Part shown: positions 1-27,555 of the stretch, one piece after another | Position numbering within the stretch: the stretch's first letter is position 1 | How the letters are laid out: each line of letters starts with the position of its first letter | Source of the DNA: Acetobacteraceae bacterium | Lineage (GTDB): Bacteria; Pseudomonadota; Alphaproteobacteria; Acetobacterales; Acetobacteraceae | DNA length: 38,140 bases | Direction: 5' to 3' | Assembly: GCA_035701785.1 (NCBI GenBank) | Contig: DASSRN010000602.1 | Location: 1-38,140 of the forward strand | The notes under the pieces: model-generated | The model's input: the letters and a program-made list of their open reading frames with translations, nothing else | Told to the model about the DNA's origin: nothing | Databases searched by the model: none | Made by a program: the position numbers and the translations under genes

Positions 1-282
1 TCGTTCCGAAACTTCACCACCGGCCACAGCCACACGTTCGGCGGCGAGTATGTCGAACTCGTTCCAGGCGAGCGCCTGCGCTACACTGATCGCTTCGATG
101 ATCCCAATCTTTCGGGCGTCATCGAGGTGACGGTGACGCTCAAGGCCGTATCCGTCGGCACCGAGGTAGATATCGTGCAGTCAGGCTTGCCGGACGTCAT
201 ACCGCCGGAAGCGTGCTACCTCGGCTGGCAGCAGTCATTGCGCAACCTGGCGAGGCTGGTGGAGCCCGAGATCAGGCAATAG
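1..282 (+). CDS. SRPBCC / AHSA1-like (activator of Hsp90 ATPase homolog 1-like) protein, C-terminal fragment; 5' end lies outside the window
   Basis: Frame +1 is open from base 1 to TAG 280..282. Hand translation gives ...GGEYVELVPGERLRYTDRFDDPNLSGVIEVTVTLKAVSVGTEVDIVQSGLP...GWQQSLRNLARLVE, typical of the C-terminal half of AHSA1/SRPBCC proteins. GC-rich third codon positions. Confidence 0.75.
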   Translation, partial: SFRNFTTGHSHTFGGEYVELVPGERLRYTDRFDDPNLSGVIEVTVTLKAVSVGTEVDIVQSGLPDVIPPEACYLGWQQSLRNLARLVEPEIRQ

Positions 283-285
283 CGC

Positions 286-1047
286 TCACCCGTCCCACAC
301 CTGGCTGGGCATCGGCAGGTTGGCGAACTCCGCCGGACCCGGCGGGTGGTCGCCTTCGATGCCCGCCATGCCCAGGAGCATGTTCCACTGCCGCACATGC
401 TGGCCAACATGCCAGGTGCTGCGCTCCAGGTATTCGTGCAGCAGTTGCGGGCCGTAGTAGGTCTGCACCGTTTCGCGGGCTGACTTGTCGGGCTTCGCCG
501 CCCACCATGCCCCCAGCCGCTGCCGCACATCCTTGCCATAGGCGACTATGTCGGCGGTGGTCTGCATGCTGTCCGGCGGCCGCGAGGTCAGTCCGCTGTA
601 TTCCAGCGTCGCACCGTCGGCGACTTCGAGGAAGGTCTCGGCGATGCGGAAGATGTGGTGGCCCAGCACGCGGTAGCTGCGCGGACGGTTCGGCACCTCC
701 GTGGCTAGCTTCGTGTCCGGCATCTGCGGGATCATGCGAACTGCGGCGCCAAGGAAGGCGTCGAGCCGCCCGATCAGCTGCCCAGGCGACAGCACCGGAC
801 CGGTCGCCTCGTTGAGCCCGAGGAACTTCACCACATGACCGATGTTCTGCGCGAACACATATTCGTCGCCGCGCGACAGCACGGGGACAGAACGGGCTCC
901 CAGCCGCCTCAGCTCATCGAGCCCCGCGGGGTCTTCCAGCACGTTGATGGATTGGAACTCGATCGCACGGACCGAGAGAAACTCTTTGAGTTTCAAGCAG
1001 CTGGTTCACCCCGGCTGCCAGAACACCTTCAGCGGCACCGTGTCCAT
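286..1047 (-). CDS. Glutaredoxin-like (thioredoxin fold) domain fused to a DinB-family domain. Interrupted by an in-frame TGA at 1006..1008 in the position of the first Cys of CxxC (Sec candidate or nonsense mutation).
   Basis: Track ORFs 286..996 and 1006..1872 (minus) share one frame (1006-286=720). Hand reading from ATG 1045..1047 (GAGGA 6 nt upstream) gives MDTVPLKVFWQPG-TGA-TSCLKLKEFLSVRAIEFQSINVLEDPAGLDELRRLGARSVPVLSRGDEYVF. This is beta1, xTSC, helix, beta2 and cis-Pro VPV of a Grx/NrdH fold. The C-terminal part carries DinB-like His motifs (VLGHHIFRIAE, WHVGQHVRQ). The TTG 'start' at 996 would remove beta1 and the active site. Confidence 0.6.
958..994 (-). promoter_or_regulatory. Two tandem RNA hairpins just 3' of the in-frame UGA (SECIS candidates, unproven)
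   Basis: mRNA sense. Hairpin 1 (genomic 978..994) is GAAACUC-AAA-GAGUUUC: 7 perfect bp, 17 nt long, starting after an 11-nt spacer from the UGA. Hairpin 2 (958..976) is CUCGGUC-CGUGC-GAUCGAG: 7 bp including one G.U, which would be an A.C mismatch on the opposite strand. Confidence 0.3.
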
Positions 1048-1176
1048 CGCCGTTCCTCTGTTACCTGACCGCACCTTCCACCCGCGTGACGCCGGCGTCA
1101 ATCGGCTGGACAGGGTCGCCGCGCCTGGGCGATCATTCGCAGCGGCGTTGGCTCGCGACCCTGCTTTGAGGCGGTG

Positions 1177-4100
1177 ATGGATGTTGCCGAATGGCTGCGC
1201 GCGCTTGACCTGACCCAGTACGCCGCGGCCTTCCACGAGAACTCGATCAGCGCCGATCTGCTGCCGCGCCTGACGGCCGATGATCTGCGCGACCTCGGCG
1301 TGACGTCGGTCGGCCACCGCCGCCGGCTGCTCGATGCGATCGCCGCGCTGCGCGCCGGGGCAGGGGCCGAAAGCCACGCCGGCGCCATCGCCGAGGAAGC
1401 GCAGCGCCGTCCGCCGCCGGGTGCCGAGAGGCGCCAGGTCACCGTGATGTTCTGCGACATGGTGAATTTCACCGCTCTTTCGGCGGAACTGGATCCCGAG
1501 GACCTGAGCGCTGTCATTCGCGGCTATCAGGCGACCGTCGCTGCCACGATCGACCGCTCCGGCGGTTTCATCGCGCGCTATGTCGGCGACGGCGTGCTGA
1601 TCTATTTCGGCTGGCCCGAGGCGCGCGAGGCCGATGCCGAACGGGCGGTGCGCGCCGGACTGGCGGTGGTCCGCGAGATCGGCCAAGCGCCGAGTGGCGG
1701 TGTCCGGGTGGCCCTGCGCATCGGCATTGCCACCGGCCTCGTTGTGATCGGCGAACCGATCGGGGCCGGTGACGCGCGCCAGCAGACTGCAATCGGTGAA
1801 ACCCCCAACCTCGCAGCCCGCCTGCAGGCGCTGGCCGGCGACGACGGCATCGTCATCGACGCCGAGACGCACCGCCAGATCGGCCGGCTGTTCGACTGCA
1901 CCGATCTCGGGCGTCTCACTCTAAAGGGCATTCCTGGCCAGGTGCAGGCCTGGCAGGTGCTGAAGGAGGCGGCGATCGGCAGCCGCTTCGAGGCGCTGCA
2001 CGACAGGAGCCTTTCACCGCTGGTCGGCCGCGACGAGGAGATCGACCTCCTGATGCGGCGATGGGAGCAGGCGAAGGGCGGCAGCGGGCGCGTTGTGCTG
2101 ATCGTCGGCGAGCCGGGCATCGGCAAGTCGCGGCTGGTGGCCGAACTGGAGGCCCGCCTGCGTGACCAGGATCATGCCAGGCTGCGCTACTTCTGCTCGC
2201 CTGACTATTCTGACGCTCCGCTGCACCCGATCGTCCGGCAGATGGCACTGGCGGCCGAACTCGATCGCGCCGACGCGCACGAGGCGAAGTCGCAACGGCT
2301 GCGAGCCTTGCTTGGTGCGGGAACCGAGCGGGCAGATGTGGCCGCACTGGGCGCCCTGCTCGGTGTCGACGAGGCCGGCGGGAAGCGTTCGAGCGCGCGG
2401 CTGCATAAGGAACGCATATTCGCCGCCCTGCTCCGCCAGGCGGAGCGGCTGTGCCGTGAGCGACCACTGCTGGCGCTGGTCGAGGACGTGCACTGGGCGG
2501 ACCCCACCACGCGCGAACTGATCGACCTCGCGGTCACCCGGATGGCGGAGATGCGCGGCCTGCTGGTGCTGACCTTGCGGCCCGAACTTCAGGTGCCGTG
2601 GACCGGCCATGCAGGCGTCACCTCGATCACACTCAGCCGCCTGGATCGGAACGAGAGCACGGCACTCGCCGGGGTGCTGGCGACCGAGGACCTGCCGCCG
2701 GTGCTGCTACAGCGGATCGCCCAACAGGCTGATGGCGTGCCGTTGTTCATCGAGGAACTGACCAAGGACTGGGTCGAGCGCGCCAGGGACCCCGACGCGA
2801 CGCTGCAGACGATCGGCGTGCCGACAACGCTGCAAGGGTCACTGCTGGCGCGGCTCGACCGGCTGCCGGACGCGAAGCAGGTGGCGCAGGTCGGTTCGGT
2901 GATCGGGCGCGAGTTCTCGCACGAACTGATCAGCACTGCCGCGGACCTGCCCGACGACGTTTTCGCCAGCGGGCTCGAACAACTGGTCTCGTCGGGCCTT
3001 GCGCAGCGCCGCGGCGAGCCTCCCGCCGCCATCTATCGTTTCAAGCACGCGCTGGTGCAGCGCGCGGTCTATTCGACGCTACTGCGCGCGAACCGCCAGC
3101 GATTGCATGGACTGGTCGCAGACGCCCTGTCCGCCCAGCCCGACCCGGCACCGCAGATTCTGGCGCACCATCTGACCGAGGCCGGGCGGATGCCGGAGGC
3201 GGTGAAACACTGGTTGCGCGCCGGACAGCGCCTGGCGGGACGCTCGGCGGAGCGGGAAGCGATCAGCCTGTTCCGGCGTGGATTGGCCGCGCTGCTCACG
3301 CTGCCCGAAGGGCGCGATCGCGACCAGCGGGAGCTCGAGTTCAACATGGCCCTCGGGATGCCGCTGGTCACCACGGAAGGCTACGGGACCGACGTCGTCA
3401 GGGCCGTGTACGAACGCATAGCCGAGTTGAGCGAGCGCCTCGGGGATACCAGAAGCCTGCTGATCGCCACCTATGGGACCTTCGTGAGCTGCGTCGCCCA
3501 GGGCGACAATCGGCAAGCCACGGCTATCTCCGAACGCGCGAGCATCCGCTTCGCCAATGCGGGTGAGCCGGTGGGCCGTCTGATCCTGCACCGCATGGCG
3601 GGGTTCGCTGCATTCCAGGCCGGCCGATTCCGCGAGGCGCGGCATCAGCTGGAGGCGGTGCTCGAGCTCTACGATCCGGACGTGCATGCGTCCCTGGCAG
3701 GGACCTGGGGACATGACGCCCGCGTGGCGGCGCTCGACTATCTTAGCCACACCGTCTGGCTGCTGGGCTATCCCGACCAGGCCTGCCACCTGATGGATCA
3801 GGCGTTTGAAGCGGCACGGCAGGTTGCGCATGCGGGCAGCATCGGCCACGCCAGGTATTTCGCCGGGATCCTTTTCGCCGATCTGCGCCGCGATGCGGCC
3901 GCCCTGCGCCACCATCTGGACGCGGCACAGGAGTTCGACCGCGAGTATGCCCGACCAGGGTACAGCGTCTCGTTCTTTCACGGTATGTCCCTGTGTGACC
4001 AGGGGATGCCGGCCGATGGGCTTGCCCTCGCCGAGAGGAGCCTGGCGCAGCCGCCCAACAGCGGTGGCGAGCGGCGCACCTACATCCTGGGGCGGTTGGC

Positions 4101-4515
4101 GGCAGCGTATGCTGCAGCCGAGCAACTCGACCGCGGCTGGCAGACCATCAGCGAGGCGCAGGCCCTGAGCGCACGCAGCGCCGAACGTTCCTGGGATGCC
4201 GAGTTGGAGCGGATCGCCGGCGAGATCCAGCGTGCCAGGACTGGTGGCGGCAGCGCTGAAGCGCATCTCCGGCTTGCCATCGATACCGCGCGTCAGCAAG
4301 GGGCGAAGAGCCTCGAGCTACGCGCCGCCGTCAGTCTCGCGCGTCTGTTGCAGCATCAGGAGCGGCAGGCCGAAGCCCGCCAGCTACTGGCCGTCGCGTA
4401 CGCCGGATTCACAGAAGGTTTCGATACGCCCGATCTGCGCGATGCGAGCGCACTACTCTCGGAACTGGCGGGAGAACCTTACCACCCAGCCCAGCGATCG
4501 GGCGGACCAACCTGA
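1177..4515 (+). CDS. SAM-domain / class III adenylate-guanylate cyclase / STAND-type AAA NTPase / TPR multidomain signalling protein
   Basis: The N-terminus MDVAEWLRALDLTQYAAAFHENSISADLLPRLTADDLRDLGV is SAM-like. Cyclase motifs: VTVMFCDMVNFT, GDGVLIYFG, GETPNLAARLQ. Walker A is VGEPGIGKSRL and Walker B-like is LALVEDVHWADPTT, followed by a long helical TPR-like C-terminus. ATG 1177 (GAGG 5 nt upstream) is preferred over GTG 1174. Confidence 0.9.
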   Translation: MDVAEWLRALDLTQYAAAFHENSISADLLPRLTADDLRDLGVTSVGHRRRLLDAIAALRAGAGAESHAGAIAEEAQRRPPPGAERRQVTVMFCDMVNFTALSAELDPEDLSAVIRGYQATVAATIDRSGGFIARYVGDGVLIYFGWPEAREADAERAVRAGLAVVREIGQAPSGGVRVALRIGIATGLVVIGEPIGAGDARQQTAIGETPNLAARLQALAGDDGIVIDAETHRQIGRLFDCTDLGRLTLKGIPGQVQAWQVLKEAAIGSRFEALHDRSLSPLVGRDEEIDLLMRRWEQAKGGSGRVVLIVGEPGIGKSRLVAELEARLRDQDHARLRYFCSPDYSDAPLHPIVRQMALAAELDRADAHEAKSQRLRALLGAGTERADVAALGALLGVDEAGGKRSSARLHKERIFAALLRQAERLCRERPLLALVEDVHWADPTTRELIDLAVTRMAEMRGLLVLTLRPELQVPWTGHAGVTSITLSRLDRNESTALAGVLATEDLPPVLLQRIAQQADGVPLFIEELTKDWVERARDPDATLQTIGVPTTLQGSLLARLDRLPDAKQVAQVGSVIGREFSHELISTAADLPDDVFASGLEQLVSSGLAQRRGEPPAAIYRFKHALVQRAVYSTLLRANRQRLHGLVADALSAQPDPAPQILAHHLTEAGRMPEAVKHWLRAGQRLAGRSAEREAISLFRRGLAALLTLPEGRDRDQRELEFNMALGMPLVTTEGYGTDVVRAVYERIAELSERLGDTRSLLIATYGTFVSCVAQGDNRQATAISERASIRFANAGEPVGRLILHRMAGFAAFQAGRFREARHQLEAVLELYDPDVHASLAGTWGHDARVAALDYLSHTVWLLGYPDQACHLMDQAFEAARQVAHAGSIGHARYFAGILFADLRRDAAALRHHLDAAQEFDREYARPGYSVSFFHGMSLCDQGMPADGLALAERSLAQPPNSGGERRTYILGRLAAAYAAAEQLDRGWQTISEAQALSARSAERSWDAELERIAGEIQRARTGGGSAEAHLRLAIDTARQQGAKSLELRAAVSLARLLQHQERQAEARQLLAVAYAGFTEGFDTPDLRDASALLSELAGEPYHPAQRSGGPT

Positions 4516-24244: not shown

Positions 24245-25108
24245 ATGCGCATGGCTTCCTGCGTTGGCGCGATTCTGGCCCTGCTGCTGGTCCGGGCGGC
24301 GGCCGCCGACGGACCGGTGCAGAACCGATTCTTCCTCACCAGCGACGGCGTACGGCTGCACTACCTGGAAGCAGGTCCGCGCTCCGGTCATACCATCGTG
24401 TTTGTACCGGGCTGGACCATGCCGGCTTGGATTTGGCAGCCGCAGATCGCTGCTTTCGCATCGCGTTATCACGTCGTCGCATTCGATCCGCGCGGCCAGG
24501 GCGAGTCGGATGCACCCGCATCAGGTTATGAACCGGGTCGCCGCGGCCAGGACATCGCCGAACTGATCGCGAGCCTGGAGCCGGTACCGGTGCTGCTGGT
24601 CGGCTGGTCACTTGGCGTGCTCGACACGCTCGCCTATGTGCGCTCGTTCGGCGACGAGAAGGTGGCCGGCCTCGTGCTGGTGGATAATTCGGTCGGCGAA
24701 GAACCACCGCCCCCGCCCCATCCGCCACGCCGCCGCTCTCCGGTGCTGCCGCATGCCATCGCGATGCACCGGTTCGTACTCGGCATGTTCCATCACCCGC
24801 CATCCGACGGCTACGTCGACCGCCTTACCGAGGCGACCTTGCGCACGCCGGAGTTCGCCAGCCGCGCGCTGCTGTCCTACCCATTGCCTCGTACCTACTG
24901 GCGTGACGCGGTGTATTCGACCAGCCGCCCGGTGCTGTACGTCGTGCGCCCAGGCTGGCTGTCGGAACAGGCGGCCAATCTGGCGCGCAACCGACCGGGC
25001 ACGCAGATCGCGGTCTTCGCCGATGCCGGCCACGCGTTGTTCGTCGACGACGCCGCACGGTTCAACACGCTGCTCGCAGGCTTCCTCGTCCGGAACGTCT
25101 GGCCGTGA
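24245..25108 (+). CDS. Alpha/beta hydrolase with signal peptide
   Basis: MRMASCVGAILALLLVRAAAADG is the signal. HTIVFVPGW and the nucleophile elbow GWSLGV are present, plus a C-terminal GHALF-type His. The stop overlaps the next start as GTGA. Confidence 0.85.
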   Translation: MRMASCVGAILALLLVRAAAADGPVQNRFFLTSDGVRLHYLEAGPRSGHTIVFVPGWTMPAWIWQPQIAAFASRYHVVAFDPRGQGESDAPASGYEPGRRGQDIAELIASLEPVPVLLVGWSLGVLDTLAYVRSFGDEKVAGLVLVDNSVGEEPPPPPHPPRRRSPVLPHAIAMHRFVLGMFHHPPSDGYVDRLTEATLRTPEFASRALLSYPLPRTYWRDAVYSTSRPVLYVVRPGWLSEQAANLARNRPGTQIAVFADAGHALFVDDAARFNTLLAGFLVRNVWP

Positions 25109-27555
25109 AGGGGCGCACCGCTCTGGTGCCGCTCTTCCTCATATCGCTGGCCGCGGTGGGGTACGAGACGGCGCTCACCCGTTACTTTGCCGTCGCAAAG
25201 TGGTCGGAATACGGCTACTGGGTCATCTCCATCGTCATGGCCGGCTTTGCACTGAGCGGCGTGGTGCTGGCGCTGTTCCGTGACGCCTTCGCCCGCCGCG
25301 GCGAGGCCTTGCTGGCGGCGTTGCCCACGCTGCTGATCATAGCCGCCGCCATTGGCTTTCACTTCACCACCACCAATCCGTTCAACCCACTGCAATTGCA
25401 GAATCCGGTCACCTGGAATCAGCAGCTGTGGAACATCGCCGGCTATTACGCCTGCCTGCTGCCGTTCTTCTTTCTGGCCGGCATCTTCGTCAGCCTGAGC
25501 TTCGTGCTGAACGCCGATCGCATCGGCACGGTGTATGGCTTCGACCTTACGGGCGCCGGTGCAGGGGCTGCCTGCGTGTTGGCGGCAATGTTCGTGGTGC
25601 ACGCCTTCTTCCTGGTCCCGCTGCTGCTGGTCCCGCTCGCCCTCAGCGCCTGCTTCGTCACGGGACGCCGGCGTTGGGCAGCCGCACTGGCCGCGTTCGC
25701 CACGCTGCTCGCCTCCGAGTCGCTGCTGCTGTTCGACAACCGGGCCGAATACAACGATTTCAAGGCGATCTACGCCCCGCTGCACACGCCGGGCGCACGC
25801 GTAGTCGCCAGGGTGCTGTCACCGCGCGGCGACTATTCATTGCTCGACGACTTCACCGAGCGCGTGGACACCGACATCTCCAACAATGCCGGCATGATGG
25901 GCGTGCCGGGTCCGCCGCAGACCTTCGGGCTTTACCGCGATGGCAACCGCATCGCCGCGCTGCCCAAGGGGCCGCCCGATGTGGGCTATGCGCCGGCGTC
26001 GCTGGACGCGCTGCCCTATCGGCTGATCCCGCACGCCAAGGTACTGCTGGCCGGTGCCTCGGGCAGCTTCCGCATCGAGGAGGTGCTGGCCCTCGGCGCG
26101 GCTCATGTGCGCGCACTGGAACCGGAACCCGTGCTGCTGCGCGCGCTGGAGCATGGCCTGGGGCCAGCCGATCGCTGGCGGGGCGACGACCGGGTCAGCG
26201 TTTCCGGCGAGGGCCCGGTTGCGGTGGTGCACGGCGGCGGCGAGTACGACATTGTCGATCTGTCGGCCGACTTCCTCGACGCGGCCGAGGCCAACACCAC
26301 GGCCTTCACCGTGCAGGCACTGGCTGCCAGCCTGCGCGCGCTGCGGCCGGGCGGCATCGTGTCCATCCCCGTTTCGATCCGCGACTTTCCGGTCTATGCC
26401 CTGCGCGTGCTGGGCACCGCGCGTGCCGCCCTGCTGGCGGCCGGCATCGCCGACCCGGCGGCGCATACTGTAGTGTATCGCTCCGCCTGGGGCGCACGTG
26501 TGCTGCTGTCCAACCAGCCGTGGAACGCCTCACGCATCGCTTCGGTGAAGGCGTTCTGCGACGAGCGCTCGTTCGACGTGTCGTGGTATCCCGGCATGGA
26601 TCCCGCCGCCATGCGCGGCAACATCTACAACGACCTGCCGGCCGTGTCGTTTGCCAGCGGTGAGGTCGCTTCGGACGGACCGGACGATGCGATCGCCGAC
26701 GAAGCGGGCGCGGTGCTGGCCGGCCAGGATTCTCCGTCGAGAGCGGCGTTCAATCTGGCGCCGATCACGCTGGACCGCCCATTCTTCTATGCCGTGCTGC
26801 GGCTGGACCAGCTCGGAACGATCCTGAAACGCCTGGAGATCTTGCCGCAAGCGGAGATCGGCGCGCTGGTCAATCTCGCCGTGCTGGCCCAGGCGGTGGT
26901 GATCGCGGCACTGGTGTTGCTGGTGCCGCTCGCGGCGTCGCGCCGGCTGCGGCTGCCGGAGCGCGGCGTGCTGCGGCCGATGGTGTATTTCTCCGCACTT
27001 GGCTTGGGCTTCCTGTTCCTCGAGATCTACCTGATCGAGAGGGCGAGCCTGTGGTTGAACGACCGGACCTCGGGGTTCGCGCTGGTGCTGACCGGCATGC
27101 TGGTGTTCTCCGGGATCGGCAGCATGCTGGCGGACCGCGTGCGCTCGCCACAGACCGGCATCGCAACGGCCTGCATCATGGTCCTCGCGTGGTGCGCCAT
27201 CGTGTTCGTGTTGTTGCAGCCGTTGATCCTGGCCACGCTCGCGCTGCCCTGGTTGGCGCGCGCTGCGCTCGTGCTGGTCGTGCTGGCGCCGGCGTCGGTC
27301 GCGCTGGGCCTGCCATTTCCGCTCGGTCTGGCACAGACCGGATCGGGCGGACTGCTGCCCTGGGCGTGGGGGCTGAACGGCGCATTCTCTGTGGTAGCGA
27401 CGCCACTCGCCAACCTGATCGCGCGCGAGGCCGGGTTCAGCCGGGTTCTGTTGTCCGCCGCGGTGCTGTATGTGATCGCCCTGGTGATGTTCCCGGTGAC
27501 AAGGAAAAGCCGCGCGTGGCAGTTGCACTCCGAACGATCACGCGCCGCGGAGTGA
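25105..27555 (+). CDS. Polytopic membrane protein with a central spermidine-synthase-like (class I MTase fold) domain between two roughly 7-TM bundles
   Basis: Seven hydrophobic segments lie in aa 1-210 and seven in aa 590-800. The central part reads KVLLAGASGSFRIEEVLALGAAHVRALEPEPVLL...YDIVDLSADF, which aligns to the SpeE pattern vLiiGGGDG..rEvl...v..vEiD...fDvIi.D. GGGDG is replaced by GASGS. Confidence 0.82.
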   Translation: MKGRTALVPLFLISLAAVGYETALTRYFAVAKWSEYGYWVISIVMAGFALSGVVLALFRDAFARRGEALLAALPTLLIIAAAIGFHFTTTNPFNPLQLQNPVTWNQQLWNIAGYYACLLPFFFLAGIFVSLSFVLNADRIGTVYGFDLTGAGAGAACVLAAMFVVHAFFLVPLLLVPLALSACFVTGRRRWAAALAAFATLLASESLLLFDNRAEYNDFKAIYAPLHTPGARVVARVLSPRGDYSLLDDFTERVDTDISNNAGMMGVPGPPQTFGLYRDGNRIAALPKGPPDVGYAPASLDALPYRLIPHAKVLLAGASGSFRIEEVLALGAAHVRALEPEPVLLRALEHGLGPADRWRGDDRVSVSGEGPVAVVHGGGEYDIVDLSADFLDAAEANTTAFTVQALAASLRALRPGGIVSIPVSIRDFPVYALRVLGTARAALLAAGIADPAAHTVVYRSAWGARVLLSNQPWNASRIASVKAFCDERSFDVSWYPGMDPAAMRGNIYNDLPAVSFASGEVASDGPDDAIADEAGAVLAGQDSPSRAAFNLAPITLDRPFFYAVLRLDQLGTILKRLEILPQAEIGALVNLAVLAQAVVIAALVLLVPLAASRRLRLPERGVLRPMVYFSALGLGFLFLEIYLIERASLWLNDRTSGFALVLTGMLVFSGIGSMLADRVRSPQTGIATACIMVLAWCAIVFVLLQPLILATLALPWLARAALVLVVLAPASVALGLPFPLGLAQTGSGGLLPWAWGLNGAFSVVATPLANLIAREAGFSRVLLSAAVLYVIALVMFPVTRKSRAWQLHSERSRAAE

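Follow-up and report, generated by a model that had tools for sequence, protein, structure and literature searches.

Selenocysteine (Sec) glutaredoxins of the UxxC type (PF00462) combine a thioredoxin fold, Sec in place of the first Cys of the CxxC motif at the N-terminus of helix 1, a selenocysteine insertion sequence (SECIS) within the open reading frame (ORF) after the UGA, and frequent Cys homologues. They appear as 'Glutaredoxin (Grx), PF00462, UxxC' in Table 1 of a May 2026 inventory of 119 families and subfamilies that includes single-domain Grx and several named fusions, and that cites Clostridium experiments (Kim et al. 2011; PMC13188914). DinB/YfiT proteins, among them bacillithiol, mycothiol and glutathione S-transferases, are metalloenzymes built on a four-helix bundle with a site of three His residues (PMC10950700); in the known members the low-molecular-weight thiol is free and no redoxin is fused to the enzyme, and none of them has been reported as a selenoprotein. 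Here we analyse a gene at positions 286 to 1,047 of a 38,140-nucleotide (nt) stretch of DNA from an Acetobacteraceae bacterium (contig DASSRN010000602.1; the whole stretch is hereafter the window) that joins both modules and carries an in-frame TGA at the active site. The gene shares all of the above features with Sec glutaredoxins, which are small single-domain proteins, whereas the window protein is NrdH-like by fold and bears an additional DinB/YfiT domain of roughly 170 residues. With the DinB/YfiT superfamily (BstA/YfiT, MST and mycothiol-dependent maleylpyruvate isomerase) it has in common the helical bundle, the residues H131 and H213-x3-H217, and fold matches to 6iz2, 2f22 and 2nsf. 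Judged from comparative sequence analysis, TGA 1008..1006 is very probably a selenocysteine codon, a reading that follows from the conserved TGA, the Cys homologues, translation on both sides of the codon, a co-varying hairpin downstream and linkage to sel genes in relatives.

The gene is a 253-codon minus-strand frame, the TGA codon included, that starts at ATG 1047..1045 and terminates at the stop codon 288..286. Read along the minus strand, it runs from MDTVPLKVFWQPG through TGA 1008..1006 into TSCLKLKEFL... and continues uninterrupted to 288..286, and the 240 codons after the TGA are coding-like in composition (G+C content of 0.84 at third codon positions, GC3, and 0.45 at second positions, GC2). 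The initial annotation of this DNA had located the ATG, a GAGGA motif, the TGA, the frame and two downstream hairpins, and its coordinates were all correct on re-reading. A promoter and terminator scan of positions 1..1400 returned nothing informative. The gene and its coding landmarks are as follows.

286..1047, minus strand: predicted selenoprotein gene, complete, encoding a Grx(UxxC)-DinB fusion (single frame; full-length collinear homologues; GC3 0.84)
1054..1058, minus strand: Shine-Dalgarno-like GAGGA, 6 nt 5′ of ATG 1047..1045 (sequence reading)
1006..1008, minus strand: UGA predicted to be read as selenocysteine, U14, the putative attacking residue of U-T-S-C (TGA in 102/102 TGA-type sequences, Cys in 59/59 distant relatives)
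997..999, minus strand: TGC codon of C17, putative resolving Cys of UxxC, invariant in the Sec and Cys groups

We took the DNA of 21 closer and 59 more distant relatives, one genome per species, and translated it in frame. All 21 closer relatives (62–89% identity), which are genome bins of Acetobacteraceae or 'uncultured Alphaproteobacteria' and one Stellaceae bin, read FWQPG-TGA-TSC, and all 59 more distant aligned homologues (41–48% identity), which include Burkholderiales, Paraburkholderia, Caballeronia, Ramlibacter, Bradyrhizobium and Limibaculum, read FWQPGC[TS]SC. Further Cys forms occur in Roseomonas marmotae, in L087/L088 and among many full-length cluster representatives. The orthologue comparison that had been proposed as a check therefore divides cleanly, the close ones all keeping TGA and the distant ones carrying Cys, and the initial placing of the TGA at the attacking Cys of a thioredoxin fold is borne out by homologues that have the first Cys of CxxC at this position. 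The codon is TGA in 102 of the 102 TGA-type sequences examined, including lineages only 37–57% identical. Its placement, matched by TGA in these sequences and by Cys in the 59 distant relatives, exceeds chance by far. A cluster-representative search at 50% identity returned 835 clusters, many of which, at 33–50% identity, are N-truncated as well; when the DNA of nine such representatives was sought, seven had TGA at the same codon, on contigs spanning 33% to 64% GC and at 37–50% protein identity, one was a Cys form with a mis-called start, and the ninth was left out for want of DNA. A metagenome scan added 80 loci, 73 of them with the site on the contig; together with the seven cluster lineages these make 80 with the site on the contig, and TGA is present in 80/80, a count that is not an unbiased frequency because the two peptide patterns of the scan probably favour TGA-type clades. 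The family sources are soil-labelled genome bins and JGI metagenome contigs.

Database annotation carries the same signature. A protein search gave 2,703 matches, the best 120 of which (81–91% identity) are all 218- or 236-amino-acid (aa) entries that begin past the TGA position, a uniform pattern expected of gene callers halting at a conserved TGA. Public annotation, including that of NCBI and ENA genome bins, systematically cuts TGA-type genes at the active site, and the Cys-form genes of cultured strains are annotated solely as 'DinB family protein' or 'glutaredoxin domain-containing protein'. No NCBIfam model reaches threshold, which fits these uniformly truncated public annotations.

Translation upstream of the TGA is supported by the seven codons that precede it, where F and W are each kept in 99/101 sequences and Q and P in 101/101, with Pro, Gly and Val each using all four codons; at the level of sequence comparison these codons are under protein-level purifying selection. 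An in-frame start lies 6–17 codons 5′ of the TGA in 101 of 102 sequences, and in alignments with full-length Cys homologues the pre-TGA residues fall on strand β1 and the CxxC turn, so that a protein initiated 3′ of the TGA would lack the active site. The in-frame UGA is conserved among orthologues, with purifying selection both upstream and downstream of it, and Cys homologues (59/59 of the distant genome homologues) align to the UGA.

Two hairpins follow the codon in the mRNA, and the minimum free energy (MFE) fold of the window sequence contains both.

958..976, minus strand: hairpin 2, proposed SECIS core, with stem CUCGGUC/GAUCGAG of 7 base pairs (bp) and loop CGUGC at 965..969 (pairing, covariation, bacterial SECIS constraints)
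978..994, minus strand: hairpin 1, GAAACUC-AAA-GAGUUUC, 11 nt past the UGA (clade-specific conserved helix)

Synonymous-codon entropy at codons +2 to +17 after the TGA is 0.17–0.32 bits in 22 window-clade sequences, a trough that is the gene-wide minimum against a gene mean of about 0.85 bits. The same codons in the 59 Cys-type genes show 1.0–1.45 bits, and this contrast of high entropy in Cys-type and low entropy in TGA-type genes indicates nucleotide-level constraint only where the TGA is present. Hairpin 2 explains most of this synonymous constraint. Pairs were counted in an ungapped alignment of 69 distinct 60-nt sequences from the UGA onward. In hairpin 2 (columns 33–39 with 45–51) 96.5% of cells are paired and six of seven pairs have changed on both sides, with compensations from UCGGUC/GAUCGA to ACGGCC/GGUCGU, UCAAUC/GAUUGA and UCGGUU/AAUCGA, so that the co-varying structure that the initial annotation had proposed to look for is present and conserved downstream of the TGA. 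For the two hairpins jointly (14 pairs), none of 500 shuffles equals the observed alignment in pairing, covariation score or count of compensated pairs, and pairing drops to 26–52% when the 3′ partner is displaced by 1–3 columns. Pair 37–47, a G-U in 65 of 69 sequences, would turn into an A·C mismatch on the opposite strand; the structure of hairpin 2 therefore exists in the mRNA sense only, in agreement with the better mRNA-sense pairing first noticed in the single sequence. Hairpin 2 (at least 6 of 7 pairs) is formable in 0/59 Cys-type genes, whose mean pairing is 42%, and the peptide S-V-R-x-I-E/D-F encoded over it is confined to TGA-type genes, Cys forms having T-K-Q/S-G-I/V-E/D-F/Y.

The bacterial SECIS (bSECIS) model specifies a loop of 3–9 nt, a stem of 4–16 bp and an MFE at or below −7.5 kcal/mol (PMC13188914, Fig. 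2 legend), together with a G at loop position 1 or 2, after which G or U is usual, and a UGA-to-loop distance of 16–37 nt (PMC13188914). Hairpin 2 passes every item, with the 5-nt loop CGUGC, 7 bp, a loop that starts 36 nt past the UGA and an MFE of −7.6 kcal/mol. The initial annotation had discounted this hairpin as far from the UGA, an objection that falls away because 36 nt lies within the published 16–37 nt (PMC13188914). By these sequence-based measures hairpin 2 is a well-supported candidate for the SECIS core, borderline on spacing and energy. With SECIS elements of the E. coli fdhF/fdnG type it shares its position within the ORF and a small loop with G then U first. The E. coli fdhF SECIS loop lies 18–19 nt from the UGA; the Roseomonas fdnG SECIS, which also has a GU-initiated loop, shows a spacing of 18–19 nt as against 36 nt for hairpin 2. 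Unlike fdhF-type elements, the window's clade has a second conserved helix filling the spacer.

That second helix, hairpin 1, had been the preferred SECIS candidate of the initial annotation. Its E. coli-like geometry was read correctly, but it is limited to one clade and fails both the bSECIS G rule (its loop is AAA or AAG) and the energy rule (−5.5 kcal/mol). Hairpin 1 is 100% paired in the window's clade, where synonymous sites are kept too, is paired in 73.5% of cells overall, and is absent from other TGA lineages. It is a real and conserved helix of the window's clade. A folded spacer between UGA and hairpin 2 was considered as a general trait and rejected: the spacer folds at −6.7 kcal/mol versus −3.0 for shuffles in the window's clade, and at −4.0 versus −4.0 kcal/mol for shuffles in other hairpin-2-type lineages. 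Four TGA-type sequences without hairpin 2 (L085, L086, L135 and L136) have another hairpin 19–22 nt past the UGA with loops AGUAU, AGUUU or AGGA, which points to the exchange of one SECIS for another at a single homologous codon of the same protein family.

In relatives, the gene is found beside the genes for Sec synthesis and decoding. On two metagenome contigs, L091 and L092, the order is Grx-DinB gene, tRNA-Sec (anticodon tca), selA and selB, with a SelA 49% identical to that of E. coli. On a third, L138 (67.5% GC), the order is selA, selB and tRNA-Sec, followed 2.6 kb on by a Grx-DinB gene whose protein is 57% identical to that of the window. Sel linkage is therefore seen on three contigs from two lineages, and the search for selA, selB and selC that had been proposed as a check is answered positively in relatives only. 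On L138 the tRNA-Sec (3220–3315) overlaps the 3′ end of the selB ORF (1468–3267), an overlapping selB-selC arrangement known mainly from Alphaproteobacteria (PMC8124441); the L138 lineage itself is betaproteobacterial, and the closest relatives of its SelA are labelled Burkholderiales/Betaproteobacteria. As a separate observation, L092 also carries on its minus strand (L092:445-972) a gene of the UGSC family (PF24696) with its own in-frame TGA at 691–693 (...VVEGLAD-U-GSCTSC...), 2 kb from the Grx-DinB gene and selC-selA-selB, making a small 'selenium island'. A search of the window and loci L001–L021 for other TGA-interrupted coding ORFs returned only Grx-DinB genes and adjacent same-frame operon genes.

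Domain and fold assignments place the TGA in the redox motif of the N-terminal module. With Cys set at the TGA, a Pfam search matched Glutaredoxin PF00462 at aa 7–63 (38.8 bits versus a cut-off of 22.9, E 1e-9) and approached DinB_2 PF12867 at aa 108–220 (23.3 bits versus a cut-off of 24.8), for which many relatives carry a precomputed match. The corresponding features are given below.

859..1029, minus strand: Glutaredoxin/NrdH-like domain, aa 7–63, with cis-Pro V54-P55 (PF00462; Grx structure 7c10 in the Protein Data Bank, E 2e-6; proxy fold)
388..726, minus strand: DinB/YfiT four-helix-bundle domain, aa 108–220 (DinB_2 near cut-off; proxy fold 6iz2)
655..657, 409..411 and 397..399, minus strand: His triad H131, H213 and H217, respectively (invariant in 81 sequences)

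Across 81 sequences U/C14, S16, C17, V54-P55, H131, H213 and H217 are invariant, as are a number of Arg, Gln and Trp positions of the C-terminal domain. The AlphaFold2 model of P0126, a Cys-form proxy, is a single body (predicted local distance difference test, pLDDT, 96.7; predicted template modelling score, pTM, 0.92). Foldseek comparison matches its C-terminal domain to the DinB/YfiT protein DR0053 (6iz2; template modelling score, TM, 0.83) and also to 2f22 and 2nsf, and its N-terminal domain matches NrdH (1h75, TM 0.81; 3zit, 0.88). Assignment to the glutaredoxins thus draws on a profile score above threshold, U14-x-x-C17, the cis-Pro and a thioredoxin fold, and assignment to DinB/YfiT on a four-helix bundle and three conserved His, with both folds taken from the proxy and the metal site predicted. 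The fold search found no solved structure that joins a redoxin and a DinB domain. Canonical glutathione S-transferases likewise pack an N-terminal thioredoxin fold on an all-helical C-terminal domain, but the likeness is loose (TM about 0.3), and the protein described here has instead a predicted metal-binding DinB bundle and a dithiol-type UxxC. The UXX-star NCBIfam families NF041212, NF041211, NF047338 and NF041114 were also considered and rejected, with scores of 13–32 bits against cut-offs of 66–100; these families need Sec two residues before the C-terminal stop, whereas Sec here would be residue 14 of 253.

Several observations weigh against selenocysteine insertion at this codon or against hairpin 2 as its signal. 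The single-sequence fold is not unusual (z = −1.0; equalled by 30 of 200 shuffles), and the hairpins gain significance solely through comparison with relatives. The sequences in the pair count come mostly from two clades, so that independent compensatory events are fewer than the cell counts suggest. Hairpin 2 lies close to two limits of the bSECIS model (36 of 37 nt; −7.6 versus −7.5 kcal/mol), the closing C·C of the window loop CGUGC is unpaired, unlike in CGUGG variants, and Rfam gave no SECIS or other family at gathering threshold in the whole window or at E up to 10 in 880..1080. The structural model is that of the proxy, 46% identical to the window protein and built from a 46-sequence alignment. 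The 38-kb window holds ordinary chromosomal genes and no sel, fdh or tRNA genes, and tblastn with E. coli SelA, SelB and SelD together with ARAGORN found no selA, selB, selD or tRNA-Sec in the window or in the ±10-kb flanks of L001–L080. Two SelA homology searches, with L138 and Roseomonas queries, tied none to contigs carrying the TGA gene. In favour of the Sec reading, cultured Acetobacteraceae do possess the complete machinery: fdnGHI-fdhE-selA-selB and selD lie on a plasmid of Roseomonas mucosa, and proteins bearing the name SelA occur in Roseomonas, Roseococcus, Roseicella, Pseudoroseomonas and Teichococcus. Sec machinery for the window's clade is thus shown at family level only and otherwise unproven, and this is the main gap in the case.

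We weighed three other explanations of the TGA. The initial annotation had allowed for a fresh TGC-to-TGA nonsense mutation or a sequencing error, with the gene a recent pseudogene of this genome alone. The two codons are one base apart, but the same TGA recurs in 102/102 TGA-type sequences, in 21 independent species-level genomes and in about 80 metagenome contigs, with protein identity as low as 37%, and the reading frame is unbroken and under selection both before and after it; because relatives share the TGA, a pseudogene or error is ruled out, and we give this explanation practically no weight. Alternatively, the TGA could be a true stop, with a functional 218- or 236-aa protein starting downstream and the 13-codon upstream frame serving as a leader or surviving as a relic. 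Such a protein is what the database entries depict (the best 120 of 2,703 matches), and GTG and TTG starts are present downstream. The truncated product would, however, be a Grx fold stripped of strand β1 and of its entire redox motif, the upstream codons show protein-level conservation and match β1 and CxxC of full-length Cys homologues, the structure after the codon is specific to TGA genes, and the downstream 'starts' vary among lineages, so that a true stop is very improbable.

Somewhat less improbable, though still of low probability, is that the UGA is wholly or partly recoded as something other than Sec, either as Cys, through a tRNA-Sec-like tRNA or SelB under selenium limitation, or by near-cognate read-through. 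Cys is the functional equivalent in homologues, and Sec machinery was not found for the window's clade in the flanks and SelA searches. Against this, the gene in relatives stands beside tRNA-Sec (tca) and selA, which makes Sec and not Cys; the SECIS-like hairpin suits SelB-dependent decoding; and a costly UGA would be pointless to retain were Cys the product.

With selenocysteine as the preferred reading, translation of the mRNA would begin at ATG 1047, and at the UGA an in-ORF SECIS just downstream would recruit SelB with Sec-tRNA(Sec). The SECIS core would be hairpin 2 (958..976), with its 7-bp stem and loop C-G-U-G-C 36 nt past the UGA, and hairpin 1 (978..994) would be an additional helix of the window's clade. 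The 253-residue product would carry an N-terminal Grx/NrdH-like module with a U14-T-S-C17 selenenylsulfide redox centre, in which Sec14 would be the attacking and Cys17 the resolving residue, and the ligands of the DinB domain would be a metal together with a substrate or a low-molecular-weight thiol. From these comparisons we infer that this organism inserts selenium, that hairpin 2 is bound by SelB, and what the chemistry of the enzyme would be; from its modelled domains, the protein is presumed to carry out thiol-dependent redox reactions or thiol transfer. Decoding would follow the usual bacterial mechanism, and UxxC thioredoxin-fold modules with Sec in place of Cys are the most frequent kind of selenoprotein.

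The surroundings of the gene and of its homologues add observations of their own. Neighbouring genes are not conserved, an SRPBCC-like gene being shared by L001 alone. Divergent from the selenoprotein gene, positions 1174–4515 of the window (plus strand) encode a 1113-aa signalling protein with SAM, class-III nucleotide cyclase, AAA_16 and TPR domains, a paralogue of which lies nearby at one relative locus only (L015), so that the pairing is not conserved; an 816-aa ORF at 25105–27555 (plus strand) is coding-like in composition (GC3 0.83) and has no Pfam match. On a Roseomonas marmotae plasmid (L173:3315-6382, NZ_CP061094), the Cys form VYWMTGCSSC, annotated 'DinB family protein', lies in a same-strand run with a peptide ABC transporter, an isochorismatase-family protein, an AtzG-like protein and an amidase, a run that is reminiscent of amide/biuret-type catabolic clusters and could hint at a substrate. 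The 721-aa cluster representative P0206 presents a second fusion architecture for the Grx-DinB module, which in its Cys form makes up the C-terminal third behind an N-terminal MmgE/PrpD dehydratase-family domain.

The inventory of PMC13188914 has no DinB-containing entry, and the word DinB occurs nowhere in that paper; a full-text literature search combining DinB and selenoprotein returned nothing relevant, its scope leaving aside the supplementary lists of earlier screens, where filing under 'glutaredoxin' is possible. By the inventory's own rule Grx-DinB would count as a new family entry. A broader reading, to which we give slightly less than an even chance as a whole, is that this is an undescribed and widespread selenoprotein family and the first selenoenzyme on the DinB/YfiT thiol-transferase scaffold, that gene callers systematically miss it, that its SECIS lies at the outer limit of the distance allowed from the UGA and has been swapped for a different, nearer hairpin in some lineages, and that in those bacteria where the gene stands beside selC-selA-selB it may be a principal client sustaining the Sec trait, a role usually held by FdhA or SelD.

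Together, these data extend the bacterial selenoproteome by a family that is well supported and apparently uncatalogued, with hundreds of variants in public genomes and metagenomes; it occurs in Alpha- and Betaproteobacteria at least, and on unassigned contigs that differ widely in GC. SECIS rules can naturally be tested on this family, because one homologous codon is followed by hairpins in two or more different places, of which one lies at the 36-nt limit, and the Cys-type genes serve as clean negative controls. The family also ties selenium to DinB/YfiT proteins, a superfamily for which few physiological substrates are known, and the Sec/Cys pair would mark the catalytic residue of the fusion, a handle for biochemistry.

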